Positions 168 through 20,777 of a stretch of DNA of 64,000 nucleotides are shown piece after piece. Numbering within the stretch: position 1 is the stretch's first letter; the number at the start of each line of letters is the position of its first letter. Under the pieces are notes generated by a model, which searched no databases, was not told where the DNA came from, and was given only the letters and a program-made list of their open reading frames with translations. A program made the translations under genes and the position numbers. Origin of the DNA: an uncultured Dehalococcoidia bacterium (GTDB lineage: Bacteria > Chloroflexota > Dehalococcoidia > Bin125); contig CAYFZI010000008.1 of NCBI GenBank assembly GCA_964347635.1, forward strand, positions 122 to 64,121, in the 5' to 3' direction.

Positions 168-1319
168 ATGGAGGCAAACTGGATGACGAATCTGCGTATC
201 CCCGGACCAACGCCCTGCCCGCCCGAGGTGCTGGCCGCGGCGGCCGGCGAGATGATCAACCACCGCGGGCCGCAGTTCGCCGAGCTGCTCGAACGCCTAA
301 CCAGCGGGATCCAACCCTTTTTCGGCACCGAACAGGAAATTCTGCTGCTCTCGGCCAGCGGCACCGGCGCGATGGAAGCGGCAATCGCCAACACCCTGTC
401 GCCCGCCGACGCGGTGCTCGCGGTCAGCGTCGGCTCGTTCGGCGATCGCTTCGCCGCGATCGCCGAGAACTACGGAGCCGATGTAACGCGCCTGAACGTC
501 GAGTGGGGCGCCGCGGCGGCGCCTGAGCTGGTCGCGGAAGCGATCAGTGAGCGCGAGTATCAAGCGCTGCTGCTCACCCACAACGAGACATCGACGGGGG
601 TGACCAACCCGATCGCAGAGATCGCCGCAGCCGTCCGCGGGGCCGCCGACCCGCTGATTCTGGTCGATGCAGTGTCGTCGCTGGGATCGATGCCGATGGA
701 GATGGACGCTTGGGGGCTGGACGCGGTCGCAACGGCGTCGCAGAAGGGCTGGCTGTCGCCGCCGGGGATCGCGATGGCGGCCTTGAGCGAGCGCGGCTGG
801 GCGGCCGCCGAGCGATCGACGATGCCCAGCTTCTACTTCGATCTGACTGCACACCACGAATACGCAGCGCGCGGCCAGCCGCCCTGGACGCCGGCACTGC
901 CCGTGCTCTACGCGATGGATGCGGCGCTCCCGCTCATGGCCGCTGAGGGGCCCGAAGCGATCTACGCCAAGCACCGCCGCTTCGCGGCATGGACCCGTGA
1001 GGCGGTGCAGGCGCTGGGCCTCAGGCTGCTCGCCGAGGAGGGTTACGCCTCAGACACTGTGACGGCGGTCTGGGTGCCGGACGGGATCGCCGTCGGCGAC
1101 CTGTCGCGGCTGCTGCGCGAGCAGCACGACGTGGTAATCGCAGCCGGGCAGGGCAAGCTGGCCACTCAGATCTTCCGCATCGGCCATCTGGGCTGGCTGG
1201 AAGAATCGGAAATGGCGGCCTGTTTCGCGGCGCTGCAGTCGGCATTGGTCGAGCTCGGCTTCGAGCCGGCATCGGGGGTGCGCATCCCCGAGCTGCGCGG
1301 CGCGTCGACGGTCGGCTGA
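168..1319 (+). CDS. Class V aminotransferase (serine-glyoxylate / phosphoserine aminotransferase-like)
   Basis: Track ORF 60..1319. The likely start is the internal Met of MEANWMTNLRIPGPTP (position 168). The family N-terminus (PGP...HRGPQFAELL) and overall length fit the AGXT/SerC-like PLP fold. It sits immediately upstream of serA. Confidence 0.8.
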   Translation: MEANWMTNLRIPGPTPCPPEVLAAAAGEMINHRGPQFAELLERLTSGIQPFFGTEQEILLLSASGTGAMEAAIANTLSPADAVLAVSVGSFGDRFAAIAENYGADVTRLNVEWGAAAAPELVAEAISEREYQALLLTHNETSTGVTNPIAEIAAAVRGAADPLILVDAVSSLGSMPMEMDAWGLDAVATASQKGWLSPPGIAMAALSERGWAAAERSTMPSFYFDLTAHHEYAARGQPPWTPALPVLYAMDAALPLMAAEGPEAIYAKHRRFAAWTREAVQALGLRLLAEEGYASDTVTAVWVPDGIAVGDLSRLLREQHDVVIAAGQGKLATQIFRIGHLGWLEESEMAACFAALQSALVELGFEPASGVRIPELRGASTVG

Positions 1320-1325
1320 GCGCGG

Positions 1326-3006: not shown

Positions 3007-4228
3007 CTAGTCGAGCGGGTGGAGAACCAAGCCGGTCGGCAGTTTGGGCACGAAATAGGTGCTCTTTTGCGGCATGAAGCTGCCTGCGTCGGCGGTCTCG
3101 ATCACGTCCTGGAGGGTCGCCGCGGGGAGGATGAAGGCGGCCTGCGCGCGGCCTGCACGGACCGCCTCATCGGCTTCGGAGAGGTAGTGCGTGTAGCTCA
3201 CAGCGCCGCCGGCGGCGAGCTCGGCATCGCCGATGCCGAGCAGCGGTTCGAGGATCGCGTACTGCAGGATCGCCGGCGGCAGCGTTCGCCAGGCTGCGGG
3301 GACGGACGCAGGCATCGCCGCCTGCGCGGCCGCGGCCGGCTCGAGCAGCGATGCGCCCTGCGCCGTGATCAGCCCGAGTTGGAGGCTGCCCGGCTCGAGC
3401 GCCCCGAGCGCGGCGGCGCTGGCATCGGCCGCGCTGAAGCTGCGGGCGAGGCCGTCTGTGAAATCGGACGGTAGATCGGCGTGGATCAGCCGATGCGTCG
3501 CGCCGACGGCCAGGCCGTCGTCGCTGTCGCGGACGATGCCCATCAGCACCCAATGCGAGGCGGGCCGCTGATCGCGCGAGGCGAGCGCGGATTCGTAGCG
3601 GTGATGGCCGTCGGCCATGTAGATACGGCGCTGCGCGAAGGCCGCGCTGAACTGCTGCGCCAGCGCTGGGTCGGAGATCCTGCGCAGCGTGTGGCTGTCG
3701 CCGGCGGCGTCCACCCCCTCGCTCAGCGGCGCGAGCCTGAGCGCGTCATCGATCAAGGCGCCGATCCGATCGTCCGGGTCGGGGGCGAAGGCCATCAGCG
3801 GCGAGATATCGGCGCCTGCAACTGAGCGCAGGGTCGTTCGCGCGGCTTTGGGGCCGGGCATCGTGCGTTCGTGCGCCATTACGCCGCCGGCGCCCCACTC
3901 GGAGAGCTCGACGGCGCCAAAGACAGTGCGGCGCGTGCGCGGCCCGTCCGCGGTCTGGATTCGCTGCTCGTGCAGGTAGAAGGACGCCGTCTCGTCCTGG
4001 ATCAGCACGCCCGACTCGCGCCATTCGCTGAGCCGCCGCGCGGCGGCGGCGATTTCTTCGGCTGTGGAGGCGGTCTCGATGTGCGTGATCTGGTGCGGGT
4101 TGGCCGCCTTTAGCGCGGCCGCCTGCTCGGCGTCGACGATGTCGTAGGGAGGCCCGAGCAGCGCCGCCCAATCGGCGGCGCGGGCAGGGTCGTAGCGGAG
4201 CGCGGCAAATGGTTGCACGTTGGCCATA
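3007..4228 (-). CDS. DUF1015 family protein
   Basis: The long track ORF 3007..4833 contains an internal start MANVQPFAALRYDP, which is the canonical DUF1015 N-terminus. The ATG is at about 4226-4228. About 407 aa. DUF1015 is frequently linked to serine biosynthesis genes. Confidence 0.8.
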
Positions 4229-4374
4229 TGCGTCTTCCGCGGGGAGCATATCAATCGGCTTGCAGTCGGCTGGCAGACGGTTTGCAGTCTATGTGCGATC
4301 GTCTCTGTGCGATCAGTGTGCGGCCAGTGTGCGATCGGTTTGATTGGGGCGGGCGGCGGTGCGACGCTGCGGGC

Positions 4375-5256
4375 ATGGCAGCACAATCGGAGGGCGGCGC
4401 TGACGCGCGGAGCGTGCGCGGCTGCGTCTTCTGCGGGATCGCCGACGGGCGCGAGCCGGCGCTGTTTTTTCAGCGCGAGGGCGGAATGTTCACCGATTCG
4501 CGCCGCGGCGAGCCGGCCCTGCCCTGGAGCAGCGCCGCCCCCGATGTGCTGGTCTTCGAGAACCAGTTCCTCTTCTTCGATCTGACCTCGCTGGTCATCC
4601 CGCGCGAACACCGACCGACAGAGGGGCGCCGCTTCTACTCGCAGCAGGTCGACCTGTGGCGCGACCTGGGCGCGGTGGGGCGGACCGCGCGCGATCACGC
4701 GCTGCGGGCGCTGGAACTGATGGCGGAACAGCGCCCCGACCGCGCGCCGCAGGGCTTTCGCGTGTTCTGCAACTTCGGCGCCTACGGCGAGCAGAGCCAA
4801 CCGCACGCACATCTCCAGGTGCACGCCGCGCAAGAGCTGGACGTGAGCCGTTTCGCGCCGACCGGTGAGCCGTGGCCGGCGGCGGTGCAGCGCGCCGGCG
4901 GGCGGCTGGTCGCCGAGACCGAGTCGACGCTCTTCTACGACGCGCTGCCGGTGCTGAGAGCGGGCCGCGGAGCGATGTGGAAGGTGACGGTCAGCGTCGG
5001 CTTCTCGGCGCCGCAGCGCAGCCTGCCGCCGCTGGCGCTGCTGGCCGTGCCGCGTTCACAGGTCAGCCAGCGGCAGTTGTGGGAAGATGTCGGACAGCTC
5101 GGCGCGGACGTCGTCGAGCTGGGCGAGCGCGAAAGCCCCGGCGGCTTTCGGCTCTTGGCCAACTTCCCCGGCCAGGAGCGCGGGGCGGAGTGGGGCGCGG
5201 CCCACGTGCTGCTGGTCGGCGGCGGCTATCTGGGCTTGTACGCGGACTACTACTAG
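4375..5256 (+). CDS. HIT (histidine triad) family protein with C-terminal extension
   Basis: VFCGIADGREP and the HAHLQVH histidine triad are present. The start was chosen at MAAQSEGG; it is uncertain. About 150 aa of C-terminal extension has no recognisable family. Confidence 0.6.
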   Translation: MAAQSEGGADARSVRGCVFCGIADGREPALFFQREGGMFTDSRRGEPALPWSSAAPDVLVFENQFLFFDLTSLVIPREHRPTEGRRFYSQQVDLWRDLGAVGRTARDHALRALELMAEQRPDRAPQGFRVFCNFGAYGEQSQPHAHLQVHAAQELDVSRFAPTGEPWPAAVQRAGGRLVAETESTLFYDALPVLRAGRGAMWKVTVSVGFSAPQRSLPPLALLAVPRSQVSQRQLWEDVGQLGADVVELGERESPGGFRLLANFPGQERGAEWGAAHVLLVGGGYLGLYADYY

Positions 5257-5271
5257 TACAGGCCGCCTGTA

Positions 5272-5988
5272 CTAGCCGGCGGCGATCGCTTCCTGCTGCA
5301 GCGCGAAAATCTGCTCGAGCGCTGAGCGGCCGGCGCTGAGCATCTGCTCGAGCTGGGCGGACGTGAAGGGCTTGCGCTCGGCCGTGCCCTGAATTTCGAC
5401 GAACGCACCGCCGCTGGCGACCAGATTGAGGTCGACATCGGCTGCCGCATCCTCCTCATAGCACAGGTCCACGAGCGCCTCGCCGTCGAGCAGGCCGACG
5501 CTGACTGCGGCGAGCGCCGCGAGCTGCGGGGCGCGCTCATACGCGCCTTCGCGGCCTAGCTTGCCGAGCGCGCGCTGCAGCGCCACCCAGGCGCCGTTGA
5601 TCGCCGCCGTGCGCGTGCCGCCGTCGGCTTGCAGCACATCGCAGTCGATCGTGAAGAGGCGCTCGCCGAGCGCTTCGAGGTCGGCCGCGGCCCGCAGCGA
5701 GCGGCCGATCAGACGTTGAATTTCGTGCGTGCGGCCGGAGGCGAGCACGCGCTGGCGGTCGCTGCGCGTGTTTGTCGCGGCCGGCAGCATGTTGTATTCG
5801 GCGGTGATCCAGCCCGAGCCGCTGCCGCGCAGAAAGGGCGGCACGCGCTCCCCGATCGTCACCGCGCAGAGCACGCGGGTCTGGCCCAGCGACGCGATCG
5901 CCGAGCCGGCCGCGTGGCGCCGTACATCCAGCTCGAACGAAAGCGGCCGCAGCTGATCGGCCCGCCGGCCGTCGTTGCGGGTACCCAT
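5272..5988 (-). CDS. rph: Ribonuclease PH
   Basis: MGTRNDGRRADQLRP... matches the RNase PH N-terminus. The remainder of the protein is conserved. Start set at the internal Met. Confidence 0.85.
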   Translation of the reverse strand: MGTRNDGRRADQLRPLSFELDVRRHAAGSAIASLGQTRVLCAVTIGERVPPFLRGSGSGWITAEYNMLPAATNTRSDRQRVLASGRTHEIQRLIGRSLRAAADLEALGERLFTIDCDVLQADGGTRTAAINGAWVALQRALGKLGREGAYERAPQLAALAAVSVGLLDGEALVDLCYEEDAAADVDLNLVASGGAFVEIQGTAERKPFTSAQLEQMLSAGRSALEQIFALQQEAIAAG

Positions 5989-6122
5989 GGGGCCTGCCGT
6001 GCGGCCGTCGCTGCGGGCATTCATGCGCGTCATGCTCGGAGTCTAGTGCGCTCCTCTCGGTATGCTGCGCGGCGTGCAGGGGTGCAATCGGGCAAGCGGG
6101 CAGCAAGTAGAAGGGGATTGAA

Positions 6123-7553
6123 ATGGCAATCGAGGGCTACAGCGGCTTCGACGCGGTGGGACTGGCTGAATTGGTCGCTGCGGGGCAGGTGACGGCGGCG
6201 GAGCTGCTGGAGGAGGCGATCGAGCGCACCGAGCGGGTCAACGGCCAGATCAACGCGGTGGTCTACCCCTACTACGACGAGGCGCGCGGGCGGGCGCTCG
6301 CGGGGCTGCCGGCGGGCCCGCTGCAGGGCGTGCCGTTCCTGCTCAAGGACCTCTACCTGCTCTACGCCGGGCAGCCGATGAGCAACGGCTCGCGGATTTT
6401 CGAGGGCTACGTGCCGGACCACGACCACGCGATGACCGAGCGCTACAAGGCCGCCGGGCTGAGCATCTTCGGCCGCTCGACCTCCCCAGAGCTGGGCACC
6501 ACGGCGACGACCGAATCGCTGCTGCACGGCAAGACGCGCAACCCCTGGAGCCTGGAGCACACCGCGGGCGGCTCCTCGGGCGGCGCCGCCGCCGCTGTCG
6601 CTGCGGGCATCCTGCCGGCCGCCAACGCCTCGGACGGCGGCGGCTCGATTCGGATCCCCGCCTCCTGCTGCGGCCTGTTCGGGCTCAAGCCGACCCGCGC
6701 CCGCACGCCCGCCGGCCCCGATGTCGGCGAGGGCTGGGCCGGGATGTCGACAATCCACGCTGTTTCGCGCAGCGTGCGCGATTCCGCCGCGCTGCTCGAT
6801 GCGACGGCCGGGCCCGACCTCGGCGCGCCCTACTTCGCACCCCCGCCCGAGCGGCCCTGGAGCGAAGAGGTCGGCGCGCCGCTCGGGCGGCTGCGCGTCG
6901 GCTTCCTCACCACCGCCTTCAACGGCGTCGACACGCATCCCGACTGCGCGGCGGCCGTCGGGCACGCGGCATCGCTCTGCGAGTCGCTCGGGCTGGCCGT
7001 CGAGCCGGCCGAGCTCGAGATCCCCGCCGAGCACCGCAGCGCGCTGTTCGACGTGATCCGCCCCGCGACGCGCGTGGCCGTCGAAGAACGCGCCGCACAG
7101 CTGGGCCGCGAGGCGAACCCCGAGGACGTCGAGCCGCTGACCTGGCGGATGATCCAAAGCGACGACACGAGCGGCGCCGACTACATCCGCGCGACCCGCG
7201 CCGTACACGCGATCGGCCGCATCGTCGCGGCGTTCTTCGAGGACTACGACCTGCTGCTGACGCCGACGATGGCCGCGCCGCCAATGGAGCTCGGCCGCCT
7301 CGCGCTGGATCGCGGCGACGCGCGCGCACAAGGCGAGGATGTGGCGTACACGGTCGGCTATACCTCCACCTTCAACTCCTCCGGCAACCCAGCCGCCTCG
7401 ATCCCGCTCTGGTGGAATGAGGCCGGGCTGCCGATCGGCGTACAGTTCGCCGCTCCCTACGGAGACGAAGCAACGCTGATCCGCTTGGGATCGGCGCTGG
7501 AGCAGGTCCAGCCGTGGTTCGACCGCCGCGCTCCCGTACACTCCGATCGCTAA
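6123..7553 (+). CDS. Amidase (amidase-signature family)
   Basis: GGSSGGAAAAVAAG...GGSIRIPAS signature. 476 aa. Confidence 0.85.
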   Translation: MAIEGYSGFDAVGLAELVAAGQVTAAELLEEAIERTERVNGQINAVVYPYYDEARGRALAGLPAGPLQGVPFLLKDLYLLYAGQPMSNGSRIFEGYVPDHDHAMTERYKAAGLSIFGRSTSPELGTTATTESLLHGKTRNPWSLEHTAGGSSGGAAAAVAAGILPAANASDGGGSIRIPASCCGLFGLKPTRARTPAGPDVGEGWAGMSTIHAVSRSVRDSAALLDATAGPDLGAPYFAPPPERPWSEEVGAPLGRLRVGFLTTAFNGVDTHPDCAAAVGHAASLCESLGLAVEPAELEIPAEHRSALFDVIRPATRVAVEERAAQLGREANPEDVEPLTWRMIQSDDTSGADYIRATRAVHAIGRIVAAFFEDYDLLLTPTMAAPPMELGRLALDRGDARAQGEDVAYTVGYTSTFNSSGNPAASIPLWWNEAGLPIGVQFAAPYGDEATLIRLGSALEQVQPWFDRRAPVHSDR

Positions 7554-7633: not shown

Positions 7634-9280
7634 ATGCGAGTCGCCGCTGCCGTCGCCGAGATGCTCAAGCGGGAGGGCGTGGAGTTCGTCGTTGGCTACC
7701 CAGTCAATCCGATCTTCGAGGCCGCCGCGGAGGCCGATATCCGCACGATCATTGTGCGCCAGGAACGTACGGCGATCCATATGGCCGACGCCTTCGCGCG
7801 GATGAACTCCGGCGACCAGGTCGGCGTCTATCTGACTCAAGCCGGCCCCGGGGCCGAGAACTCGTTCGGCGGCCTCGCACAGGCCTGGAGCGAATCAGCG
7901 CCGCTGGTCGCGATTCCCGGCGGCTACGCGCGGGCCCAGACCAATGTCGCGCCCAACTTCAGCGGGCTGGTCAACTTCCAGCATGTGAGCAAGTGGACCG
8001 AGCAGCTCACCGTCGCGAAGGACCTGCCCAACGCGATCCGGCGCGCGTTCACGCACGCCCGCAACGGGCGGCCGCGGCCGGTCGTGCTGGAGATCCCCGG
8101 CGACATGTGGGGCGAGGAGATTGAGGAGCCGATCGACTACCGCCCGACCTCGTCGGTGCGCTCGGGGCCCGACCCGGCCGACGCGCGCCGCGCCGCGCAG
8201 ACGCTCGTCAACGCCGAACGCCCAGTGATCTACGCCGGCCAGGGCGTGCACTACGCGAAAGCCTGGGACCAGCTCAAGGAGTTGGCCGAGCTGCTCGAAG
8301 CGCCGGTGACGACCAGCCTGCAGGGCAAAAGCGCGTTCCCCGAGACGCATCCGCTTTCGCTCGGCTCGGGCGGGCGGGCTTTCCCCCGCGCGGTGCACGA
8401 GTTTGTGCAGAACGCCGACGTGATCTTCGGAATCGGCTGCTCGTTCGCCGCCACCGGCTTCGGGCTGACGATGCCGAAGGGCCCGCACTACATCCACGCA
8501 ACGCTCGACCCGGAGGACTTCAACAACGCGGTCGAGATTTCCGAGGGCATCGTCGGCGACGCAGCGCTGGTGCTCGACGCGGTGATCGCCGAAGTGCGCG
8601 AGCTGGTCAGCGGCCCGCGCGGCCGCGCCGACGCGGTGGCCGCCGAGATCGCCCGCCTGAACGGTGAATGGCGCGCCGCCTGGGCGCACAAAACCGATTG
8701 CGAAGAATCGCCGCTCAACCCCTACCGCGTGCTGCGCGATCTACACGCCGCGATCGATGAGACGGTCGGGATCGACAACGTGGTGGCGACGCACGACGCC
8801 GGCAGCCCGCGCGACCAGATGTCGCCGTTCTGGAACTCGACCGCGCCGCTGAGCTACATCGGCTGGGGCAAGACGACCCAGCTCGGCTACGGCCTGGGCC
8901 TGGCGATGGGCGCCAAAATCGCCCACCCCGAAAAGCTCTGCCTCAACGTCTGGGGCGATGCCGCGATCGGGATGACGGGGATGGATTTCGAGACAGCGGT
9001 GCGCGAGAACATTCCGATTCTGTCCGTGCTGCTGAACAACTTCTCAATGGCGATCGAGCTGCCGATTATGCAGACCGCAACCGAGAAGTACCGCGCCACC
9101 GACATCTCCGGCCACTACGCCGATATGGCCAAAGCCTTCGGCGGCTACGGCGAGCGGATCACCGAGGCGTCGGAGATCAAAGACGCCGTCAAGCGCGGCA
9201 TCGCAGCAACCGAGGACGGGCAGCCGGCAATGCTGGAGTTCATCACCAGCAAGGAAATCGACTACTCGATCTTCCGCTAA
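7634..9280 (+). CDS. Thiamine pyrophosphate-dependent enzyme (acetolactate synthase / 2-hydroxyacyl-CoA lyase / oxalyl-CoA decarboxylase superfamily)
   Basis: 548 aa. N-terminal Pyr domain, central domain, and C-terminal TPP-binding GDAAIGMTGMDFETAV...NN motif. Confidence 0.85.
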   Translation: MRVAAAVAEMLKREGVEFVVGYPVNPIFEAAAEADIRTIIVRQERTAIHMADAFARMNSGDQVGVYLTQAGPGAENSFGGLAQAWSESAPLVAIPGGYARAQTNVAPNFSGLVNFQHVSKWTEQLTVAKDLPNAIRRAFTHARNGRPRPVVLEIPGDMWGEEIEEPIDYRPTSSVRSGPDPADARRAAQTLVNAERPVIYAGQGVHYAKAWDQLKELAELLEAPVTTSLQGKSAFPETHPLSLGSGGRAFPRAVHEFVQNADVIFGIGCSFAATGFGLTMPKGPHYIHATLDPEDFNNAVEISEGIVGDAALVLDAVIAEVRELVSGPRGRADAVAAEIARLNGEWRAAWAHKTDCEESPLNPYRVLRDLHAAIDETVGIDNVVATHDAGSPRDQMSPFWNSTAPLSYIGWGKTTQLGYGLGLAMGAKIAHPEKLCLNVWGDAAIGMTGMDFETAVRENIPILSVLLNNFSMAIELPIMQTATEKYRATDISGHYADMAKAFGGYGERITEASEIKDAVKRGIAATEDGQPAMLEFITSKEIDYSIFR

Positions 9281-9394
9281 CGGCCGATATCACAGCAGCG
9301 GCAGGCCGACGCCTGCCGTCGGCTCAGAGTGCGGCCCGCCTGTTCGTTGCTGCTGCAGTGGCGGTTGTGTGCCCGTTTGGCCGGCCGGCGGCTG

Positions 9395-10588
9395 CTACGC
9401 CACGATTCCGTCGGACGCCGCGGCCGCCGTCTGCTCGGCGTCCATCCCCAGCCAGTCGCGCAGGACCGCGGCGTTGGATTCGCCGAAGATTTCGGGGCGC
9501 TCGTACTCCGCCGCCGGCGTCTTCGAGAACCGCAGCGCCAGGCGGTCGCCCTTGAGCGGGCCCAGCAGCGGATGCGCGCCGCTGTAATCGAAGAAAAACT
9601 CGTTGCTGCGCAGCTGCGGGTCGCTGCGGGTGAGGTCTTCGCCCGTCTGCACCACGCCCGCGGGGACGCCCGCCGCCTGGCAGCGCTGCATCAGCTCGTA
9701 GGCCTCCTGCCGACTCGTCCAGCCGGCCAGCTGGCCGTCCAGCTCGGCGCGCGCCGACCAGCGGCCCGCGCTGCTCTCGAACTGCGCATTGCGCGCCCAG
9801 CTCGGCGCGCCGAGCAGCGCGCGCAGCGCCGCCCACTGCGCATCGGTCTCGACCGCGATCGCGATCCAGCGATCCTCGCCGCGGCATGGGTAAATGTTGT
9901 GCGGCGCGGCGATTCGCCAGGGCGGGTCGTTGCCGATCGGCTCGGCGGCGGCCGCGTTCGCGAACCAGTCGAGCAGCGCGGGGCCGGAGAAGTTGACGCC
10001 AACCTCGAACTGCGACATGTCGATGCGCTGGCCGCGGCCCGTCCGCCGCCGCGCCTCCAGCGCCGCGAGCAGCGCAACGGCGGCGTGCAGGCCGGCCATG
10101 TGATCGTTGTAGGAAAAGCCGATCCCAATGTCGCTGCGGCCAGGCACACTCGTGAGGTAGGTGAGCCCCGCGAGCGCGTGCACGGTGGGTGCGTAGGTCA
10201 CGTATGAGGCCCACGGCCCCGACTCGCCCATGCCCGACATCGCGATCGAGATCAGGCCGGGATTGGTCTGCGCAACCGAATCCCAATCGAGCCCCCAGCG
10301 CTTGAGCACGCCGACGGAGAAGTTGTCGATGATGATATCCGCCTTCGCCGCCAGATCCCGTGCGATCTGCTGCGCCTCGGGCCGCGCCAGGTTGAGCTGG
10401 AGCAGCCGCTTGTTGCGGTTCCAGAGCGCGTAATAGGGCGATTCAGGGCCGCCGCCGACTGTCGGCCGCGTGTCGGTGCCGACCTTCACGACATCCGCGC
10501 CGAGGTCGCCGAGGATGCGCGTGCAAAACGGACCGGCCAGCACATGGGTGAAATCGAGCACGCGGACGCCGTCGAGCGGGCGCGCCAT
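9395..10588 (-). CDS. CoA-transferase family III (CaiB/BaiF/Frc-like)
   Basis: Internal start MARPLDGVRVLDFTHVLAGPFCTRILGDLGADV is the typical family III N-terminus. The start codon overlaps the stop of the downstream CoA-transferase (TGATG). Confidence 0.85.
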   Translation of the reverse strand: MARPLDGVRVLDFTHVLAGPFCTRILGDLGADVVKVGTDTRPTVGGGPESPYYALWNRNKRLLQLNLARPEAQQIARDLAAKADIIIDNFSVGVLKRWGLDWDSVAQTNPGLISIAMSGMGESGPWASYVTYAPTVHALAGLTYLTSVPGRSDIGIGFSYNDHMAGLHAAVALLAALEARRRTGRGQRIDMSQFEVGVNFSGPALLDWFANAAAAEPIGNDPPWRIAAPHNIYPCRGEDRWIAIAVETDAQWAALRALLGAPSWARNAQFESSAGRWSARAELDGQLAGWTSRQEAYELMQRCQAAGVPAGVVQTGEDLTRSDPQLRSNEFFFDYSGAHPLLGPLKGDRLALRFSKTPAAEYERPEIFGESNAAVLRDWLGMDAEQTAAAASDGIVA

Positions 10589-11748
10589 CAGTCGTCCCAG
10601 CCGATCGCGCTGAGAATCTGCTCGGTCGAGGCCGGCGGCGGCTCGCTGGGGTCGCCGCCGACGCGGGCCGGCGTCTCGGCGAGTTGATAGGGCGCGCCGG
10701 GCCCGGCCGCGGCGCCCCCGCCAAGCGGATAATCGGCCCACCAGCCGCGCGCTTTGAGCTGCGGATTCGCCGCGACCTCAGGGACCGACATCACCCAGCC
10801 GAACGGGTGGTGGCGCCGCTGCGCCTCGTGGAAGAACGGCTCGACTTCCTTCTCGGCGGCCCAGCGGCGCAGCACCTCCATGCTGCGCTCGATCATCAGC
10901 ACGAGATTCTCGGGCTCGGCGTACTTCGGGTCGAGCAGGTCGGCGTGCGCGTCCTCCTCGACGAGCCAGGCAAGCTGTTTCTGGAAGTCGGGCGTGGGCG
11001 TGACCATGATCGAGCCCCCGCGCGCCTGCATCACCTGGTAGGCGCGGCTCCAGTGCAGCGAGCCCTGGCGCGGCAGGAACGCACCCGCGCCGCCCGCGCC
11101 GAAGGGCAGCTGATCGCTGTGCCAGGCCCACATCAGCACGTGTTCGAGCACCGAGGCGATCGCCTCGTGCACGGCCAGCCGCACTACCTGCCCCCGGCCC
11201 GTCCCGCGCGCGCTGCGCAGCGCGGCCAGCGCGCCGATCGCGGCGTAGACGCCGGCGATGAAGGCGTACTGGTCGCCGAACAGCTTGAGCGGCGGCGTAT
11301 CGGCGGCGCCGCAGGTCGCGGCGATCCCGCCCAGCGCCTCGGCGACCAGCGCCGGCGCCTGGTAGTCGGCCCAAGGGCCGTCGGGGCCGAACGAGGAGAC
11401 ATCGACGATGACCAGCGCGGGGTTGGCGCTCAGCAGCTCATCGTGGGCGATTCCGGCCGCCTGCAGGCGCCCGCAGTCGAGCAGGATCTCGGCATGCACA
11501 GCCAGCGCCCGGATGGCCTCAGCGTCGGAGCGGGGGCGCGCGTGCTGCCGGCTGCTGGCGAAGAAGGCGTGCCAGAGCGACTGGCCGTTGTGCGTCGGCC
11601 CGCACCCGCGCAGCGGGTCGCCGCCGCTCGGCTCGAGGCGCAGGACCTGCGCGCCAAGATCGCCGAGCAGCTTGCCGGCGTAGATCGCGCGGTCGTCCGC
11701 GAGGTCCAGCACCCTGACCGCTTCCAGCGCAGCAGGCGTATCGGGCAT
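10588..11748 (-). CDS. CoA-transferase family III (CaiB/BaiF/Frc-like), paralog
   Basis: MPDTPAALEAVRVLDLADDRAIYAGKLLGDLGAQV... About 386 aa. Translationally coupled to the upstream paralog. Confidence 0.85.
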   Translation of the reverse strand: MPDTPAALEAVRVLDLADDRAIYAGKLLGDLGAQVLRLEPSGGDPLRGCGPTHNGQSLWHAFFASSRQHARPRSDAEAIRALAVHAEILLDCGRLQAAGIAHDELLSANPALVIVDVSSFGPDGPWADYQAPALVAEALGGIAATCGAADTPPLKLFGDQYAFIAGVYAAIGALAALRSARGTGRGQVVRLAVHEAIASVLEHVLMWAWHSDQLPFGAGGAGAFLPRQGSLHWSRAYQVMQARGGSIMVTPTPDFQKQLAWLVEEDAHADLLDPKYAEPENLVLMIERSMEVLRRWAAEKEVEPFFHEAQRRHHPFGWVMSVPEVAANPQLKARGWWADYPLGGGAAAGPGAPYQLAETPARVGGDPSEPPPASTEQILSAIGWDD

Positions 11749-11852
11749 AGCGGCCAGTCTAGGCGCGACGGCGCTCTGATACGATCCCGCGCGCATGGCA
11801 GGTGTTCGGCATGCACATGTCCGCATGCAGGTGTTGTGAAGGGGGCGCGCCG

Positions 11853-13040
11853 ATGGAGTTTCGCTTTTCCGATGAGGACGAGGCGTTTCGCGGCGAGGTC
11901 GTGCAGTTTCTCGAGTCCGAGCTGCCGCCCGGCTGGGCCGATCTGTCGGAAGGCCCGGCCGAGGAGGGCGCCGCCAACGAGGAGCGCTGGCGCTTCACAC
12001 GGCAGTTTCAGCGCTCGCTGGCCGAGCGCGGCTGGCTGACGCTGGGCTGGCCTGTCGAGCACGGCGGCGCCGGCGCCGGCCCGGTCCGCCAGGCAATGTT
12101 CAACGAGGCGATGGCGCACCACCGCGCCCCGGCCTACAACCAGGGCGTCGACCGCGTCGGGCCGACAATCATCATGTACGGCTCGGAGGCGCACAAAGAG
12201 TTCTTCCTGCCGGCGATCCGCAACGCCGAGATCAGCTGGTGCCAGGGCTTCAGCGAGCCCGGCTCGGGCTCCGATCTGGCCTCGCTGCAGACCCGCGCGG
12301 TGCGCGACGGCGACGACTTCATCATCAACGGACAGAAAATTTGGACCTCCGGCGCCCAGCACGCCGACTGGATCTTCTGCCTCGCCCGCACCGACCCGGA
12401 CGCGCCGAAGCACCGCGGCATCTCCTTCTTCCTGATCGATATGCGCACGCCGGGGATCACCGTGCGGCCGCTGGTCAACATGGCCAACCGCCACCACTTC
12501 AACGAGGTCTTCTTCGAAGACGTGCGCGTGCCCGCCGCGAACATGGTCGGCGAAGAGAACCGCGGCTGGTACGTCGCCGCGACGACGCTCGATTTTGAGC
12601 GCTCCGGCATCTCGCGCGTCGTCAGCGGCGTGCGCCTGCTCGGCGAGCTGACCGCGCTCGCCGCGCAGCCGGGCCCGGACGGCCGCCGCCCCGACGAGGA
12701 CATCCGTGTGCGCCGTCGGCTCGCCGATCTGCAGATCGAGTTCAACGTCGGCCGCTGGCTCGCCTACCGCGTCGCCTGGATGCAGTCGCAGGGCCTCGTG
12801 CCCAACCAGGAAGCCTCGATGAGCAAGCTGTTCGGCACCGCCGTCAATCAGCGCCTGGCCGGGATGATCAACATGCTCGGCCTGCACGGCCAGCTCGCCG
12901 GCGACGCCGAGCGCGCCCCCCTGCTGGGCCGCATGCCCGATGAGTACCTCAACGCCGTCCCCCTCACGATCGCCGCCGGCACCAGCGAAATCCAGCGCAA
13001 CATCATCGCCACCCGCGGCCTCGGCCTGCCGCGCGGCTAG
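11853..13040 (+). CDS. Acyl-CoA dehydrogenase
   Basis: MEFRFSDEDEAFRGEV... ACAD N-, middle and C-terminal domains are present, with the C-terminal TSEIQRNIIA motif. Confidence 0.85.
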   Translation: MEFRFSDEDEAFRGEVVQFLESELPPGWADLSEGPAEEGAANEERWRFTRQFQRSLAERGWLTLGWPVEHGGAGAGPVRQAMFNEAMAHHRAPAYNQGVDRVGPTIIMYGSEAHKEFFLPAIRNAEISWCQGFSEPGSGSDLASLQTRAVRDGDDFIINGQKIWTSGAQHADWIFCLARTDPDAPKHRGISFFLIDMRTPGITVRPLVNMANRHHFNEVFFEDVRVPAANMVGEENRGWYVAATTLDFERSGISRVVSGVRLLGELTALAAQPGPDGRRPDEDIRVRRRLADLQIEFNVGRWLAYRVAWMQSQGLVPNQEASMSKLFGTAVNQRLAGMINMLGLHGQLAGDAERAPLLGRMPDEYLNAVPLTIAAGTSEIQRNIIATRGLGLPRG

Positions 13041-13202
13041 CGCGGCGCAGCGGCCGAGGAGCTGAGCTGGCCAGCAAGCCGCCCTCACGACACGCACACG
13101 ACATGTAAGCCGCTGAACTGACCACTGGACAAGATATTATTTACAGTGCTATTCTGCGCCTAGCGCTGGGCACAAGGCCCGGCCGCAGACTAGGAGAGCC
13201 GA

Positions 13203-14369
13203 ATGGCCGTCACAGTCCGATCCGTCAACCGCACCCCGGTTCTGCGCGCACATGCAACGCGAATCCGCCAAGGCACGCGCGACGTGTACCACTTCGCCCT
13301 ACGGATGGCTCAGTTCGATGACGCGTTGCCGCTCGACGTCGACGCGCAGGTGATCAGAGACAACCGCCGCTTCATTCCGAGCCATGCGAAGGGGATCGAG
13401 GAGTATCTGGCAGACTCAGCTTCATGGGTCCTCGGGCCTGTCACGCTGAGCATCGATCCGCAGTTCGTCGAGTTCGAGCCTTATCAGGGTCAAGGCAAGG
13501 GCCACCTGCCAGAGATCGGTGAATTGCGGATCGTCGAAGGTGCAAGCGCTTCGCTGCGCATCATCGACGGGCAGCACCGCCGCCGTGCAATTCGAGATTT
13601 TCTCCGCAACGGACGGGAGAGCAATTCGGACCGGTTCAGAGCGTTCGAGCAGTCACAGATGCCAGTCGCTCTCTACACCGAAGCAGATACGCAGGCAATC
13701 CGACAGATGTTCGCGGACATGGCGCGGCAGCGAAACATGGATGCTGTCACACGGGCGCGCTTCGATCAGCGCGATCCCTTCAATCGCGCGGCGTACGATG
13801 TGAAGGAACAGAGCATCTGGCTCAAAGATTTCGTGGAGATGGACCGGTCAACTGTCAGCCGCGGCAGTGGAAAGCTCATCGCCTTCAATCAGCTTGCTGT
13901 CAACCTGAAAACGCTGCTCCATGGATATGGGGGGCGGGTGAGCCGAACTCGGCAGCAGGAGGCCGAACGCAGCTTCGACGAGCTGCTCGAACGCGGACTT
14001 CACTGGGTGGACGATTTTTTGCCCCGCGCCCGGCCCGAGTATCAGGAACTGGTCGACCTAGACCAGGATGACCCGGATTTCGTGCCCAACCAACGGAAGA
14101 AAACGTTCGCGTACAGCGGCACGATGCTTCGCATTCTTGCCGGCGCATACTACGAGTGGGGCAAGATGCACCCCGGAGCCGGAACTGACGCGCTGGAGCA
14201 GTTCGTCGCTGAGCTGAACTTCAAGACCAAGCAGCGCAGCACGCTCCTGTACAGCAGCGGCATGATCGATAATCAGGGGACGACGCTTCGGGGCGGCCGG
14301 CGCGAAATCGGGTTTGCGATCGATCGGATCGTTGAAGGCGCCGGTAAAGAGCTCAGCGACTTGGCCTGA
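13203..14369 (+). CDS. DGQHR-domain protein (DndB-like)
   Basis: IIDGQHRRRAI matches the DGQHR motif of the DndB / DpdB-like family. A strong SD (GGAGAG) sits 6 nt upstream. The gene and its upstream region look AT-richer than surrounding genes. Confidence 0.8.
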   Translation: MAVTVRSVNRTPVLRAHATRIRQGTRDVYHFALRMAQFDDALPLDVDAQVIRDNRRFIPSHAKGIEEYLADSASWVLGPVTLSIDPQFVEFEPYQGQGKGHLPEIGELRIVEGASASLRIIDGQHRRRAIRDFLRNGRESNSDRFRAFEQSQMPVALYTEADTQAIRQMFADMARQRNMDAVTRARFDQRDPFNRAAYDVKEQSIWLKDFVEMDRSTVSRGSGKLIAFNQLAVNLKTLLHGYGGRVSRTRQQEAERSFDELLERGLHWVDDFLPRARPEYQELVDLDQDDPDFVPNQRKKTFAYSGTMLRILAGAYYEWGKMHPGAGTDALEQFVAELNFKTKQRSTLLYSSGMIDNQGTTLRGGRREIGFAIDRIVEGAGKELSDLA

Positions 14370-14447
14370 GTGGCTCCGCAACGGGGCGCCGCAGTGGGCC
14401 GCACGGTCACCGCGGCGGGGTGCGCGAAGCGGCTAGGCGCTGCAGGC

Positions 14448-14690
14448 CTAGCCGCTTTGCGTGCGCACATACGCGTTCCCCAGCGCGCCCCAGCTGGCGA
14501 CTAGGAACGGCACGCAGTAGGTCAGCGGGATCTTCCAGGCCAGATCGCCTGCGATGTCGCCCGCGAACAGCGCGGGGCCCTGGTTGATCAGCGTCAGGAT
14601 GGTGCCCACCACGGCGCTGGTCAGGGCGCCGCGGCGCAGCATCCGGCGGTTGCGCAGCGCGCAGCGCCAGCACTCGAGGCGCGCGCCCAT
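14448..14690 (-). CDS. NrtS-family small membrane protein
   Basis: VVGTILTLINQGPALFAG...KIPLTYCVPFLVASWGALGN matches the NrtS pattern (VVGxLLxxINxG...LTYxVPxLV). The start is uncertain. Confidence 0.5.
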   Translation of the reverse strand: MGARLECWRCALRNRRMLRRGALTSAVVGTILTLINQGPALFAGDIAGDLAWKIPLTYCVPFLVASWGALGNAYVRTQSG

Positions 14691-14848
14691 GCGGAAGCGG
14701 CGGACCGCCTCTGACGCTCTATAGAGATGCGGGCAGATCGCGGCTGCATGCACCATACGCCCCGATTATCGCGGATCGTGCAGCGGGCCGGCGCCGCCCG
14801 CTCAAGCAGCATGGCCGGCGGCATCATGCGTCCTGCGGAGGGGAAGCG

Positions 14849-15163
14849 GTGATACAACCAAACTGGCCGGCTCTCGTGATCGCCCTGACGCTTGCGTCGG
14901 CCTTCTTCGGCGCCGCCGTCGGCGGCTATACACTTGCTCAGGCCGCGACAGCGATCGCGCTCGACATCGGCTCGCCGCTCGAAGCGCTGCGGGTTGGAGA
15001 GGCGGCCAAGACGGGCGCGATCACCGGCATCGTGCTGGGCGTATTCGCCGGCGCAGCCTTCGGCTATACCGCCGGCATCAGCATCGATCGCTGGCTCGCG
15101 CAGGCTGAATCTCAGCAGCCCCCGCCGCGAATCGAGCGCCCCGACGCCGCCGCCGACGAGTAG
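14849..15163 (+). CDS. Hypothetical small membrane protein
   Basis: 104 aa with two predicted TM helices. No family recognised. Confidence 0.35.
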   Translation: MIQPNWPALVIALTLASAFFGAAVGGYTLAQAATAIALDIGSPLEALRVGEAAKTGAITGIVLGVFAGAAFGYTAGISIDRWLAQAESQQPPPRIERPDAAADE

Positions 15164-20201: not shown

Positions 20202-20777
20202 GTGGCGCGCCTCGCCTACCTGTCAAGCGGCGACACCGATGAACTGATTCATCTGACCGCGGCCGGGTTTCCAGGAACACCAGCGTTTCATCTCCGGGGC
20301 GAGGAAGGCGAACACCTGCTGCTGTCGGCGTTCGCGCAGCCGCGTTGGCCTTATCACCGCACGCTTCAGCGCAAGGCGGCGGCGCTTCACTACCACCTGT
20401 CTCAGAATCATCCATTCATCGACGGCAACAAACGCTTCGCCCTGATGGCGATGGCAGTGTTCCTCAGGCGCAATCACGCTCTGCTCCTCGCGGGCAATGA
20501 CGAGCTGCTCGAATACAGCCTGAACGTTGTGAGCGGCGCCATCAGCCGCGATGCATCGTTTGAGTTCATTGAGCGGCGCACCATACGGCTCCAATGGAGC
20601 AACCGAGCAATCGAGCGCTGGGCGCACCGCCTGTCAGATGCCGACGCTGAAGCGTCGGCGCAAGCGCTCAGGTATGTGCTGCGCTACGTGCGCGGCAGCC
20701 GCCCGGCAACGTTCCACGCTGCTGAGGACGCTCTTGGAGTGCTGCTGCAGCTTCTGCAGACGCGCAGCCGCACTTGA
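20202..20777 (+). CDS. Doc/Fic family toxin (death-on-curing)
   Basis: GTG start. HPFIDGNKR matches the Doc variant of the Fic motif (HxFx[DE]GNKR). 191 aa, with a C-terminal extension. Confidence 0.8.
   Translation: MARLAYLSSGDTDELIHLTAAGFPGTPAFHLRGEEGEHLLLSAFAQPRWPYHRTLQRKAAALHYHLSQNHPFIDGNKRFALMAMAVFLRRNHALLLAGNDELLEYSLNVVSGAISRDASFEFIERRTIRLQWSNRAIERWAHRLSDADAEASAQALRYVLRYVRGSRPATFHAAEDALGVLLQLLQTRSRT

Follow-up and report, generated by a model that had tools for sequence, protein, structure and literature searches.

To our knowledge, what is understood about DGQHR proteins concerns only their accessory role in the Dnd and Dpd DNA-modification systems. DpdB forms a homodimer with a DNA-sized tunnel, lacks an EHxxP motif and hydrolyses ATP in a DNA-stimulated manner (PMC10164549), DndB has been described as an ATP-dependent autorepressor (PMC4507180; PMC10853773), and a DndB-like protein binds both ATP and GTP (bioRxiv 10.1101/2025.10.10.680097). 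The counterparts of the DGQHRR motif are DGQQR, an NTPase motif, in DpdB and SspE, and GxxRxxA in ParB (PMC10164549, PMC4619093), and an architecture of ParB-like and HEPN domains has been assigned to DndB (Makarova et al. 2013). Here we describe a DGQHR gene that stands alone in a 64-kb stretch of Dehalococcoidia DNA (the window), and place it among its relatives.

A standalone gene of the DGQHR family

The 388-aa ORF at 13203-14369 had been classed as DndB-like in a first-pass annotation because of an IIDGQHRRRAI motif. The motif is present, at residues 120-130, and HMM searches bear out the class: the ORF scores above cut-off with both Pfam PF14072 (DndB; E=8.6e-42, 143.8 bits against a cut-off of 29.1, residues 18-343) and TIGR03187 (DGQHR; 111.1 bits, cut-off 58.85). 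Subclassification, which the same annotation had proposed, puts the protein outside both curated equivalogs, with 70.2 bits against a cut-off of 328 for DndB (TIGR03233) and 31.5 bits against a cut-off of 300 for DpdB (NF041060), the latter aligning residues 14-133 only. By these models the protein is neither DndB nor DpdB. It also falls below the cut-off of PF03235 (DUF262; 15.1 vs 33.2 bits). An identity with the Dazbog proteins was considered and rejected, with DzbA matching only at E=0.0011 (16 bits) and DzbB matching nothing in the window. A phage origin was likewise set aside: a search of 2.9 million viral contigs gave a single distant match (28%), and GenBank phages gave three weak ones.

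We assign the gene product to the DndB/DpdB (DGQHR) branch of the ParB/Srx superfamily, of which it is a standalone member. We collected 326 homologues; the family is small but widespread, with only 161 matches at E<=1e-30 among 1.84 billion cluster representatives. In the family tree the solo DGQHR genes, mostly from Dehalococcoidia MAGs, are monophyletic (the solo clade) and are not nested within DndB or DpdB.

As modelled, the protein consists of two domains, a ParB/Srx-fold N-domain and a helical C-domain without nuclease motifs (Table 1). Forty columns are invariant in an alignment of 42 family members, and the N-domain holds Q23, R26, R55, H61, D122-G-Q-H-R-R127, E160, D172, R190 and N194 among its invariant residues, the DGQHRR motif being unchanged in all 42. 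Conservation in the C-domain centres on W268-x-D-x-F-L-P...E279-Y. A motif scan of the C-domain retrieved neither the HEPN Rx4-6H motif nor EHxxP/HNH motifs; matches to Rx4-6H are confined to the N-domain (residues 10, 55 and 119), and the 42-sequence alignment has no conserved histidine after residue 125. A family profile search found no sequence relatives in the PDB, a Foldseek search of the protein model against the PDB returned nothing significant, and no specific structural relative of the C-domain was retrieved.

The composition of the gene had been called atypical by eye, and the GC statistics agree. Its GC content is 0.605 (GC3 0.73) against 0.704 for the window, the lowest among the window's long ORFs, and relative to 15 neighbouring ORFs of at least 150 aa it deviates by z = -4.0 for GC and z = -2.3 for GC3. 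Nearly all other long ORFs have GC3 values of 0.82-0.96, the exceptions being a Fic ORF at 20202 (0.72) and two overlapping calls. This deficit is seen in every host across the solo clade, whose DGQHR genes average 8.8 GC points under their neighbours.

Upstream of the gene, the first-pass annotation had pointed to TTTACA (13140-13145) as a −35 box; this hexamer has no correctly spaced −10, and the conserved promoter lies instead at a predicted sigma70-type site composed of TGGACA (13126-13131), an 18-nt AT-rich spacer and an extended −10, TGcTATTCT (13147-13155). The consensus scan found one such site where 0.4 were expected. The same architecture appears upstream of orthologues at both the ACAD (acyl-CoA dehydrogenase) locus and the TatD/polyprenyl-synthase locus, and the upstream homology between orthologues stops ~80-110 nt before the ATG. 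The strong Shine-Dalgarno sequence noted earlier is indeed there, and orthologues carry aligned GGAG-type sites. The DGQHR gene is expressed from its own conserved, predicted sigma70 promoter. No shared operator palindrome was evident in the aligned orthologue promoters; by eye, those of L078 and L079 (the labels denote loci of relatives) carry a private 9+2+9 palindrome. Downstream, a hairpin follows the DGQHR stop and reaches into the convergent NrtS-like gene, covering the stop codon of the latter. It has neither a T-run nor a GTTRRRY-type core, and it was not called by the terminator scan; it is possibly a bidirectional terminator.

Table 1. Features of the DGQHR locus, in window coordinates.
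Feature	Position	Strand	Description	Basis
Acyl-CoA dehydrogenase (ACAD)	11802..13040	+	upstream neighbour; host gene marking the slot	Pfam, synteny
Low-GC patch	~13100..14300		GC 0.59-0.61 vs ~0.70 around; corresponds to promoter and gene	composition profile
Predicted sigma70-type promoter	13126..13155	+		consensus scan and orthologue alignment
Shine-Dalgarno AGGAGAG	13192..13198	+	4 nt upstream of ATG	sequence reading
DGQHR/DndB-family gene	13203..14369	+	388 aa; stop codon included	ORF list and HMMs
N-terminal ParB/Srx-fold (ParB-CTPase-fold) domain	13236..13877	+	~residues 12-225	
DGQHRR motif	13566..13583	+	residues 122-127	direct sequence reading
C-terminal all-alpha domain	13884..14366	+	~residues 228-388	model secondary structure, conservation/motif scan
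Hairpin	14423..14461		16-nt arms, 94% complementary, 7-nt loop	inverted-repeat search
NrtS-like small membrane protein	14448..14756	-	downstream, convergent with the DGQHR gene	NCBIfam NF038050

Neighbourhood, slot and mobility

The flanks of the gene include two CoA-transferase III genes, the acyl-CoA dehydrogenase and the NrtS-like protein (NF038050, 33.2 bits, cut-off 25), as well as a 104-aa ORF without a family match, a weakly HAD-like 136-aa protein and an SBP_bac_5 protein. The reported lack of dnd, ssp, dpt or dpd partners was confirmed: none of DndC/D/E, SspB/C/D, DptF/G/H or DpdA/C was detected among the 52 proteins of the window (E<=1e-5), the sole modification-type match being a generic, weak one of the DndA/SspA type. 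PADLOC found no DpdA or DpdC in the window or among the neighbours of the solo clade, and placed the 388-aa protein in no system. Across about 15 solo-clade contexts of 12-21 kb there were no dnd, ssp or dpd genes.

Comparison of homologue neighbourhoods, another check proposed at the outset, revealed no conserved partner gene in any solo-clade locus examined. Close relatives (71-72% identical) reside in a TatD/polyprenyl-synthase/RecO neighbourhood unrelated to that of the window, and other clade members adjoin, among others, a P450 gene, rpoC or a seryl-tRNA synthetase gene. Several have neighbours of defence type, including GmrSD (L162), an AAA_15/21 ATPase with IS elements (L163), BrnA (L164) and PIN with FRG (L165); matches to HEC-01A/B and PDC-S11 among clade neighbours reach E values of 1e-93 to 1e-148, and in L006 a methyltransferase adjoins the DGQHR gene. 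In the sister clades, DGQHR genes form tandem pairs or are linked with a UvrD helicase, with a GHKL-like ATPase, or with a DNA methyltransferase accompanied by an 805-aa unknown protein. These pairs and triads are in no defence catalogue. Two apparent associations did not hold up. The small zinc-ribbon ORF that follows the DGQHR gene in L003, L006 and L008 is missing from the window and all other loci, and the 136-aa gene only seemed to be duplicated around the L008 cassette because single-linkage clustering had chained it through an antisense ORF.

The DGQHR gene sits in a slot whose content varies, within a metabolic region that is otherwise syntenic. The slot beside ACAD holds a DGQHR gene also in L003, L006, L008, L078 and L079 (in L008 the NrtS-like host gene lies on the opposite side of it), and other cargo in L081 and L112; in the latter ACAD is 87% identical, yet a different gene fills the slot. 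Within conserved neighbourhoods of relatives the position of the cassette shifts. A sister strain of ~97% nucleotide identity carries the DGQHR gene at the same site, with 97.9% identity against 97-99% for the neighbouring genes. Since the gene is at the same site and as similar as its neighbours, its acquisition must be old, and it is a stably inherited resident here rather than a recent arrival. The horizontal acquisition suggested earlier from composition therefore stands as movement over longer timescales; as a recent event it does not, given that the low GC is family-wide and the sister strain equally conserved.

Traces of such movement are seen in relatives, where cassettes are bracketed by duplications of host-gene ends: 319 bp (98.7% identical) in L002, 295 bp of the ACAD 3' end (91.9%) in L003, 111 bp (97.3%) in L080, and 355 bp (90%) around a cassette in L051 composed of a DGQHR pair plus UvrD. 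These four account for 4 of the 6 dispersed direct repeats of at least 90% identity in 1.36 Mb, with chance probabilities of bracketing of 0.01-0.26 each. In all four it is the complete host gene that adjoins the cassette, with the partial copy on the distal side, and the bracketed cassettes of L002, L003 and L080 contain no recombinase. The differences between the L003 copies, by codon position 7/6/15, do not separate in-place duplication from donor import; the distal copy is substituted at invariant residues and is therefore a decaying fragment.

The window copy carries no insertion footprint. Flanking repeats, ACAD fragments and terminal inverted repeats around it did not exceed chance or shuffled expectation, and the ACAD 3' end is single here, unlike in L003. 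A transposon, IS, integron cassette or integrase island was rejected, there being no transposase or integrase in or beside the cassette and no terminal repeats. The only known RNA family in the window is a tmRNA (34378-34734), and tRNA genes are absent; with that tmRNA 20 kb distant, a tRNA/tmRNA-targeted island was rejected as well. Homology between cassettes breaks off at differing distances, and the stretch separating repeat from core is unrelated from one locus to another. The cassette, consisting of the promoter and the gene (~1.25 kb), may move among related genomes by recombination.

A possible role in conflict with foreign DNA

By analogy with DpdB, DndB, SspE and ParB, the 388-aa protein is most likely an NTP-gated DNA clamp. 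ATP or GTP would be bound in the DGQHRR pocket; nucleotide binding would close a homodimer of N-domains, so that the helical C-domains clamp DNA, and hydrolysis would reset the switch. The relatives from which NTP binding, dimerisation and clamping are transferred are at most ~28% identical to it. Because the C-domain has neither HNH/EHxxP nor HEPN motifs, the protein probably binds or remodels DNA and does not use this domain to cut it.

The genomic contexts suggest that the protein would take part in conflict with foreign DNA, either directly in defence or exclusion or by regulating a factor that does so, and that it would have no role in phosphorothioation or 7-deazaguanine modification. 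Such a role is suggested because each sister clade is firmly tied to a partner (a UvrD-type helicase; a GHKL-like ATPase; a DNA methyltransferase with a large unknown protein; or a second DGQHR paralogue), and because solo-clade members often lie beside defence, toxin-antitoxin or IS genes; the immediate neighbours of the window gene itself are metabolic and membrane genes. Rather than the leftover of a DNA-modification system, the gene is probably a functional accessory gene for use in DNA conflict. As a complete explanation, a standalone DGQHR protein serving as an NTP-gated DNA clamp in foreign-DNA conflict is, in our judgement, evenly poised between right and wrong.

Of the two possibilities raised by the first-pass annotation, a relic or part of an uncharacterised DNA-directed function, the second is plausible and the first is not. 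A decaying remnant of a former dnd or dpd cluster would account for a solitary gene whose best-known relatives sit in such clusters. ORFs are intact in all members of the solo clade, however, and dN/dS is 0.06-0.22 (~0.1 against the closest orthologues), so that, judging from these ratios, the gene is under purifying selection. Because the solo state characterises a whole monophyletic clade outside DndB and DpdB, with intact ORFs, such low dN/dS and a conserved promoter of its own, and with 40 columns invariant across the 42 sequences in a family that is small but widespread, we find decay scarcely credible. A better case, though still an unlikely one, can be made for an orphan regulator or helper of DndB/DpdB type that acts in trans on a phosphorothioation, 7-deazaguanine or other modification system elsewhere in the genome, of which 64 kb are visible. 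DndB is a transcriptional regulator of dndCDE (PMC4507180), DpdB forms no stable complex with DpdA, making action from a distance conceivable (PMC10164549), and dndA is often unlinked from the remaining dnd genes (PMC3632139). Against this, the protein scores far under the equivalog models (70 vs 328 and 31 vs 300), the ~15 solo-clade contexts hold no modification genes, the gene has its own predicted promoter and moves as a single-gene unit, and the sister clades pair with helicase, ATPase and methyltransferase genes instead of Dnd/Dpd enzymes. To a similarly small degree probable is a single-gene effector whose ParB/Srx N-domain, in the manner of Osa, is itself a nuclease or nucleotide-degrading weapon against invading DNA or nucleotide pools. 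ParB/Srx proteins of conflict systems can act as DNases and NTPases (Maindola et al. 2014, cited in PMC10853773). Moreover, DGQHR proteins are encoded singly on ~280 conjugative plasmids of enterobacteria, next to antirestriction and ssb genes, and a plasmid defence island in Hoyosella holds a lone gene annotated DndB. We identified no nuclease motif, although sequence alone does not separate an effector from a clamp or switch; DndB and DpdB, as characterised DGQHR/DGQQR proteins that lack a nuclease domain, are no nucleases, and a constitutive, sigma70-driven nuclease without an immunity partner would put the cell at risk.

Explanations in terms of the locus rather than of the DNA-modification relatives fare worse. 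Control of the adjacent CoA-transferase/acyl-CoA dehydrogenase genes, or of the downstream membrane and transport genes, would fit the adjacency to ACAD, which is kept in the window, L003, L006, L078, L079 and L166 despite inversion of the downstream block; it is very improbable, given that relatives 71-72% identical live in the TatD/polyprenyl-synthase/RecO neighbourhood and others by P450, rpoC and seryl-tRNA synthetase genes, that in L112 another gene fills the slot beside a closely similar ACAD, and that the gene has its own predicted promoter and a foreign composition. We give equally little credence to a selfish gene that resembles a free-standing homing endonuclease gene, its protein promoting insertion of the cassette and making long duplications on the way. 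A single gene with a predicted promoter of its own, consistently foreign GC, differing positions inside conserved neighbourhoods and direct duplications of host-gene ends (111-355 bp) that specifically bracket cassettes with no recombinase inside are all what such a gene would leave. The cassettes have no defined ends, though, since homology stops variably and the repeat-to-core DNA is unrelated between loci; terminal repeats are absent, the gene is stable in the sister strain, and there is usually one copy per locus. The order of intact gene proximal and partial copy distal in 4/4 cases is explained by homology-anchored recombination with related donor DNA, which needs no element-encoded enzyme. 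It is for us a similarly far-fetched idea that DGQHR cassettes (solo, tandem pair, pair plus UvrD) form a new kind of minimal mobile element, in which the ParB/Srx-fold protein itself drives insertion beside gene ends with target duplications of 100-350 bp, leaving the host gene intact and using no transposase or integrase.

More broadly, we can tentatively imagine, while thinking it rather doubtful, that the whole family represents uncatalogued NTP-gated ParB-fold defence systems, with the solo gene of the window as the minimal, single-gene form. The window alone is a modest finding, one well-supported gene. The solo clade, mostly from Chloroflexota, adds a DGQHR protein that is conserved, selected and, from its predicted promoter, expressed on its own. 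If the solo protein does act alone on DNA, it would offer a minimal model for reuse of the ParB-type NTP switch outside chromosome segregation, and this little-studied phylum would gain a candidate for a defence or exclusion factor made of one gene. The duplicated host-gene ends, in turn, record how Dehalococcoidia chromosomes take up accessory genes with no dedicated recombinase.

Comparison with known systems

Osa and other standalone ParB/Srx proteins, as far as they are covered by the works cited in PMC10853773, act alone in conflict between elements. The analogy with the 388-aa protein is functional only, and Osa has no DndB-type C-terminal domain. The DUF262 N-domains of SspE, DndI, BrxU and GmrSD, which belong to modification-sensing NTPase-nucleases, share a D-G-Q-x-R nucleotide motif with it and resemble it in the defence context of its relatives, with GmrSD itself adjoining the clade member in L162; the 388-aa protein differs in having no fused DUF1524/HNH domain and no conserved C-terminal histidine.

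Solitary DGQHR proteins also occur on plasmids, such as WP_197389298.1 of IncL/M plasmids and the 'DndB' WP_013798159.1 of Hoyosella pAS9A-2. Their genes likewise have no dnd or dpd neighbours, and solitary DGQHR genes are therefore a recurring arrangement. The regions around them are rich in antirestriction, ssb, R-M, Pycsar, toxin-antitoxin and IS genes. These proteins, which are likewise uncharacterised, are 26-27% identical to ours over part of its length, have ~427 aa and are plasmid-borne in Proteobacteria and Actinomycetota.

DpdB of Salmonella Montevideo (NF041060), the ATPase of the Dpd 7-deazaguanine system, has the same plan of a ParB-like NTPase N-domain with DGQ(Q/H)R and a helical C-domain without EHxxP. 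Only the first ~130 residues of the 388-aa protein align with it, however, and there is no dpdA or dpdC nearby; DpdB works with DpdA, a dependence on a partner that has no parallel here.

A further described relative is DndB of Salmonella enterica Cerro 87 (TIGR03233), the regulator of the dndBCDE phosphorothioation operon. The two proteins share PF14072, with an alignment that takes in both domains (residues 18-343 of 388), the invariant DGQHR motif and a similar size. They differ in that the 388-aa protein is only 21-28% identical to annotated dndB genes, and that the solo clade is separate and monophyletic, has a promoter of its own and shows no linkage to dndCDE in the window or the clade contexts examined. 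DndB, as a reported ATP-modulated, DNA-binding autorepressor, is nevertheless the likeliest biochemical template for the 388-aa protein.

Family assignment and composition of the DGQHR gene

The DGQHR gene of the window is an orphan of foreign composition, and it is neither a relic nor newly arrived. Its membership in the DGQHR family, proposed in the first-pass annotation, was borne out by matches to the Pfam DndB model (PF14072; E=8.6e-42, 143.8 bits, residues 18-343) and to the TIGR03187 DGQHR-domain model (111.1 bits), both well over the curated cut-offs. The protein did not satisfy the DndB equivalog TIGR03233 (70 bits vs 328 required) or the DpdB equivalog NF041060 (31.5 bits vs 300 required), and the PADLOC models ranked in the same way, with an extra marginal match to DzbA (E=1e-3). 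The ATG start has the support of a Shine-Dalgarno sequence, AGGAGAG, that lies 4 nt before it, and of the N-terminal alignment of orthologues. By these models the protein is neither DndB nor DpdB, and the gene is best filed as a standalone clade within the DndB/DpdB family.

On its 5' side lie genes for a ThDP enzyme, two family-III CoA-transferases and an acyl-CoA dehydrogenase (ACAD), and on its 3' side a convergent NrtS-like gene (NF038050 match over cut-off), followed by a 104-aa ORF, a weakly HAD-like 136-aa gene and a family-5 solute-binding protein (SBP). The first-pass annotation had described these flanks correctly, and its statement that no dnd, ssp, dpt or dpd genes are nearby agrees with a PADLOC scan of the 52 window proteins, which found no DndC/D/E, SspB/C/D, DptF/G/H or DpdA/C. 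Elsewhere in the window, two candidate defence families of PADLOC, HEC-07 (E=1.3e-39, over almost the full length) and NsnC (E=1e-18), matched a 522-aa protein whose gene directly adjoins the tmRNA gene, a classic site of island integration.

The suspected AT-richer patch was confirmed: GC content is 0.605 (GC3 0.73) in the DGQHR gene as compared to 0.704 in the window. This is the lowest value among the window's long ORFs, nearly all others of which have a GC3 of 0.82-0.96. Relative to 15 neighbouring ORFs the gene has z = -4.0 for GC and -2.3 for GC3, with GC reduced at all three codon positions, and the low-GC patch has the extent of promoter plus gene. The deficit is common to all members of the window protein's monophyletic group (the "solo" clade; mean 8.8 points under neighbours) and recurs, more weakly, in the sister clades. 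Low GC characterizes the gene family and provides no clock for the window insertion. A Fic/DOC-family ORF (Pfam E=1e-11) ranks second-lowest in GC among the window's long ORFs (GC 0.63, GC3 0.72).

Coordinates of features in the window and in loci of other genomes
Locus	Feature	Position	Strand	Remarks
Window	Point equivalent to DUF4276 + ATPase module	9281-9394		gap
Window	Low-GC patch	13100-14300		
Window	Predicted sigma70-type promoter	13126-13131; 13147-13155	+	TGGACA, 18-nt AT-rich spacer, TGcTATTCT; conserved in orthologues
Window	DGQHR/DndB-family ORF	13203-14369	+	388 aa; IIDGQHRRRAI in product
Window	104-aa ORF	14849-15163	+	
Window	Fic/DOC-family ORF	20202-20777	+	
Window	tmRNA gene	34378-34734	-	
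Window	HEC-07-like gene	34824-36392	+	522 aa
L002	Direct repeat, 319 bp, 98.7%	9436-9754 / 11443-11761		5' end of polyprenyl synthase gene
L003	Direct repeat, 295 bp, 91.9%	9288-9582 / 11477-11771		ACAD 3' end, terminating exactly at stop codon
L080	Direct repeat, 111 bp, 97.3%	9609-9719 / 11183-11293		TatD 3' end
L051	Direct repeat, 355 bp, 90%	7157-7511 / 12663-13017		host gene end, around UvrD-plus-pair cassette
L112	ORF in ACAD slot	661-1554		297 aa
L081	ORF in ACAD slot	1500-2648		382 aa
L078	Palindrome	~6105-6125		same in L079
L003; L006; L008	~50-aa ORF	11225-11380; 11216-11362; 11267-11416		
L003; L079	DUF4276 + ATPase module	4098-5946; 4294-6124		
L162	Two short ORFs	9220-9916		DndB matches
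L019; L048	Tandem DGQHR pair	9962-12321; 9962-12342		

Inheritance, selection and mobility

A DGQHR gene occupies the same ACAD-adjacent slot in L003, L006, L008, L078, L079 and L166. In the sister strain L166 (~97% identity over 11 kb) it is 97.9% identical to the window gene, and since this is as similar as the neighbours (97-99%), the gene is stably and vertically inherited in the window lineage and was not acquired recently. Among more distant relatives its divergence far outpaces that of the neighbours, with amino acid identities of 63%, 53% and 48% for the DGQHR protein and mostly 64-89% for the flanking enzymes (52-69% for the SBP), and its closest relatives, 71-73% identical, include genes from a non-syntenic locus. 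Of the horizontal acquisition proposed earlier, movement of the cassette among relatives stands and a recent arrival does not. The further suggestion of a possible relic is contradicted by ORFs that are intact in all clade members, pairwise dN/dS values of 0.06-0.22 within the clade, and 40 invariant columns in an alignment of 42 diverse sequences; the gene appears to be functional.

Upstream alignment of the orthologues is limited to the final 80-110 nt ahead of the ATG, where the conserved promoter elements (Table) differ from the hexamers first put forward, which were not supported. The same promoter is kept at ACAD-side loci (window, L078/L079, L003) and in a TatD/polyprenyl-synthase/RecO neighbourhood (L002, L080) that is unrelated to that of ACAD, and the sequence 3' of the gene shows no conservation among orthologues. 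A promoter conserved at unrelated loci, with unconserved sequence downstream, marks the travelling unit as the single gene plus its promoter (~1.25 kb). Between the -35 and -10 elements of L078 and L079 sits a perfect 9+2+9 palindrome, CAAAATAAC GT GTTATTTTG, created by a 12-nt insertion; read by eye from the promoter alignment and not shared there with other orthologues, it is a possible operator.

Gene order is ACAD > DGQHR > < NrtS in the window and ACAD > < NrtS DGQHR > in L008. L002 and L080 have a common neighbourhood and DGQHR proteins that are 87% identical, with the gene lying directly upstream of the polyprenyl synthase gene in the former and between TatD and DUF4268 in the latter. 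In L112 and L081 (ACAD 87% and 71% identical to the window's, respectively) the slot downstream of ACAD holds no DGQHR gene; it is occupied by a secreted-type or membrane-anchored-looking ORF in L112 and by a multi-pass membrane protein in L081, and is therefore able to carry other cargo.

As a control, dispersed direct repeats of at least 90% identity were counted over all loci (1.36 Mb). Only six were found. Four of them, which duplicate the end of the adjacent host gene (Table), bracket DGQHR cassettes (chance of bracketing 0.01-0.26 per repeat); the other two are a pair of IS copies and a repeat inside a protein. In all four bracketed cassettes it is the complete host gene that adjoins the cassette, and the truncated copy lies at the far end; the distal ACAD copy of L003 is decaying, because substitutions hit otherwise invariant residues. 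The inserts encode no recombinase, have no terminal repeats and hold no common sequence beyond promoter and gene. As the simplest reading we infer that related genomes would trade cassettes through recombination that uses the conserved flanking gene as its anchor and forms an illegitimate joint on the opposite side, or alternatively through Campbell-type integration; later recombination between the repeats could excise the cassette cleanly. In keeping with its age, the window copy shows no flanking-repeat footprint.

Further differences were seen among these loci. The 104-aa ORF of the window, called a small membrane protein in the first-pass annotation, had no family match; present also in L166 and missing from syntenic L003, it is another small presence/absence difference within the same variable region. 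Only in L003, L006 and L008 is the DGQHR gene accompanied, directly 3', by a conserved ~50-aa ORF with a strong Shine-Dalgarno sequence and a zinc-ribbon-like CxxC...CxxC pattern (GRYCC..C..LPPCGxCGKGQRTTYRRC; no family match), which the window lacks. The block from the NrtS-like to the Fic gene is inverted in L078/L079, placing Fic directly 3' of DGQHR, so that two low-GC accessory genes mark the ends of the inversion. Between the ThDP enzyme and CoA-transferase genes, L003 and L079 carry a two-gene DUF4276 plus AAA_15/AAA_21 ATPase module that is missing in the window; its site, some 4 kb away from the DGQHR gene's own slot, would make another variable slot.

Relatives and conflict-type neighbours

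A word-indexed search retrieved 326 homologues of ~390 aa, and a profile search run exhaustively over 1.84 billion cluster representatives returned 1,252 at E<=1e-3 and only 161 at E<=1e-30; the family is small. We called ORFs, clustered neighbours and built a tree for 73 reference-genome loci, mostly from Dehalococcoidia/Chloroflexota MAGs, with a minority from Dadabacteria, Thermodesulfobacteriota, Latescibacterota, Nitrospinota, Binatia and Caldilineaceae. The window protein falls within a monophyletic clade (identity at least 48%) with L002, L003, L004, L006, L007 and L008, to which L078-L080 and L162-L166 were added later. Neighbour clustering revealed no partner gene kept throughout this clade, the majority of members being solitary; in L163 an AAA_15/21 ATPase lies directly 3' of the gene. 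In L162, where GmrSD is directly upstream, the short ORFs following the intact gene look like a degraded second paralogue, a tandem pair in transition to solo.

The sister clades are organised differently. Tandem DGQHR paralogues (~385 + ~390 aa) occur at ~28 loci (L015-L053), with the pair members forming two co-diverging clades, pair1 and pair2, and a UvrD-type helicase (~760 aa) added in L027, L033, L044 and L051; the pair, with or without UvrD, may be a system of two or three genes that has escaped cataloguing. Elsewhere the DGQHR gene precedes one for a 760-aa protein that matches GHKL ATPases weakly (HATPase_c, E=0.002; L009-L011, L050), or one for an 805-aa protein lacking any match in Pfam, NCBIfam or PADLOC, together with an N6/N4 DNA methyltransferase (L056, L057, L059, L060). 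No PADLOC system corresponds to any sister-clade arrangement.

Neighbours within the solo clade include GmrSD (L162), the ATPase and IS elements (L163), a BrnA antitoxin (L164), PIN and FRG proteins (L165) and an adjoining DNA methyltransferase (L006). PADLOC on the pooled clade-neighbour proteins gave matches to HEC-01A/B and PDC-S11 (E 1e-93 to 1e-148), and the HEC-01A/B matches, scored on this pool, are probably the DUF4276 plus ATPase module of L003/L079. Viral contigs and phage genomes contain next to no members of the family. Distant solitary DGQHR genes (~26% identity) are frequently carried by conjugative enterobacterial plasmids, next to antirestriction and ssb genes, and the defence island of a Hoyosella plasmid has a solitary gene annotated DndB, so that the solitary state is a recurring arrangement. 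The window gene is probably part of DNA-level conflict biology.

Possible modes of action

Residues ~228-388 are predicted to be all-helical. No specific structural relative was found for this C-domain, and a motif scan detected neither Rx4-6H (HEPN) nor EHxxP/HNH motifs in it; the only invariant histidines, H61 and H125, are in the N-domain. We suggest, by analogy with DpdB and DndB, that the protein is likely an NTP-gated homodimeric DNA clamp or switch, of which the tandem pairs of the sister clades would be a heterodimeric version. The main alternatives are that it acts in trans as a helper for a modification system encoded far off in the genome, beyond the 64 kb; that it is an Osa-like single-gene effector; that it is a local regulator; or that it is a self-mobilising selfish gene, against which speak the inserts, with no terminal repeats and nothing in common beyond promoter and gene.

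The NTP-gated clamp or switch is suggested by the following likenesses. DpdB forms homodimers; its N-domain, which carries DGQQR, is an ATPase stimulated by DNA and analogous to the CTPase domain of ParB, and its helical C-domains, which lack the SspE nuclease motif, surround a DNA-sized basic tunnel (PMC10164549). DndB has been reported to be an ATP-modulated autorepressor (PMC4507180; PMC10853773), and a DndB-like protein bound both ATP and GTP in vitro (bioRxiv 10.1101/2025.10.10.680097). The window protein has the same plan as that described for DpdB, a helical C-domain without an SspE-type nuclease motif.
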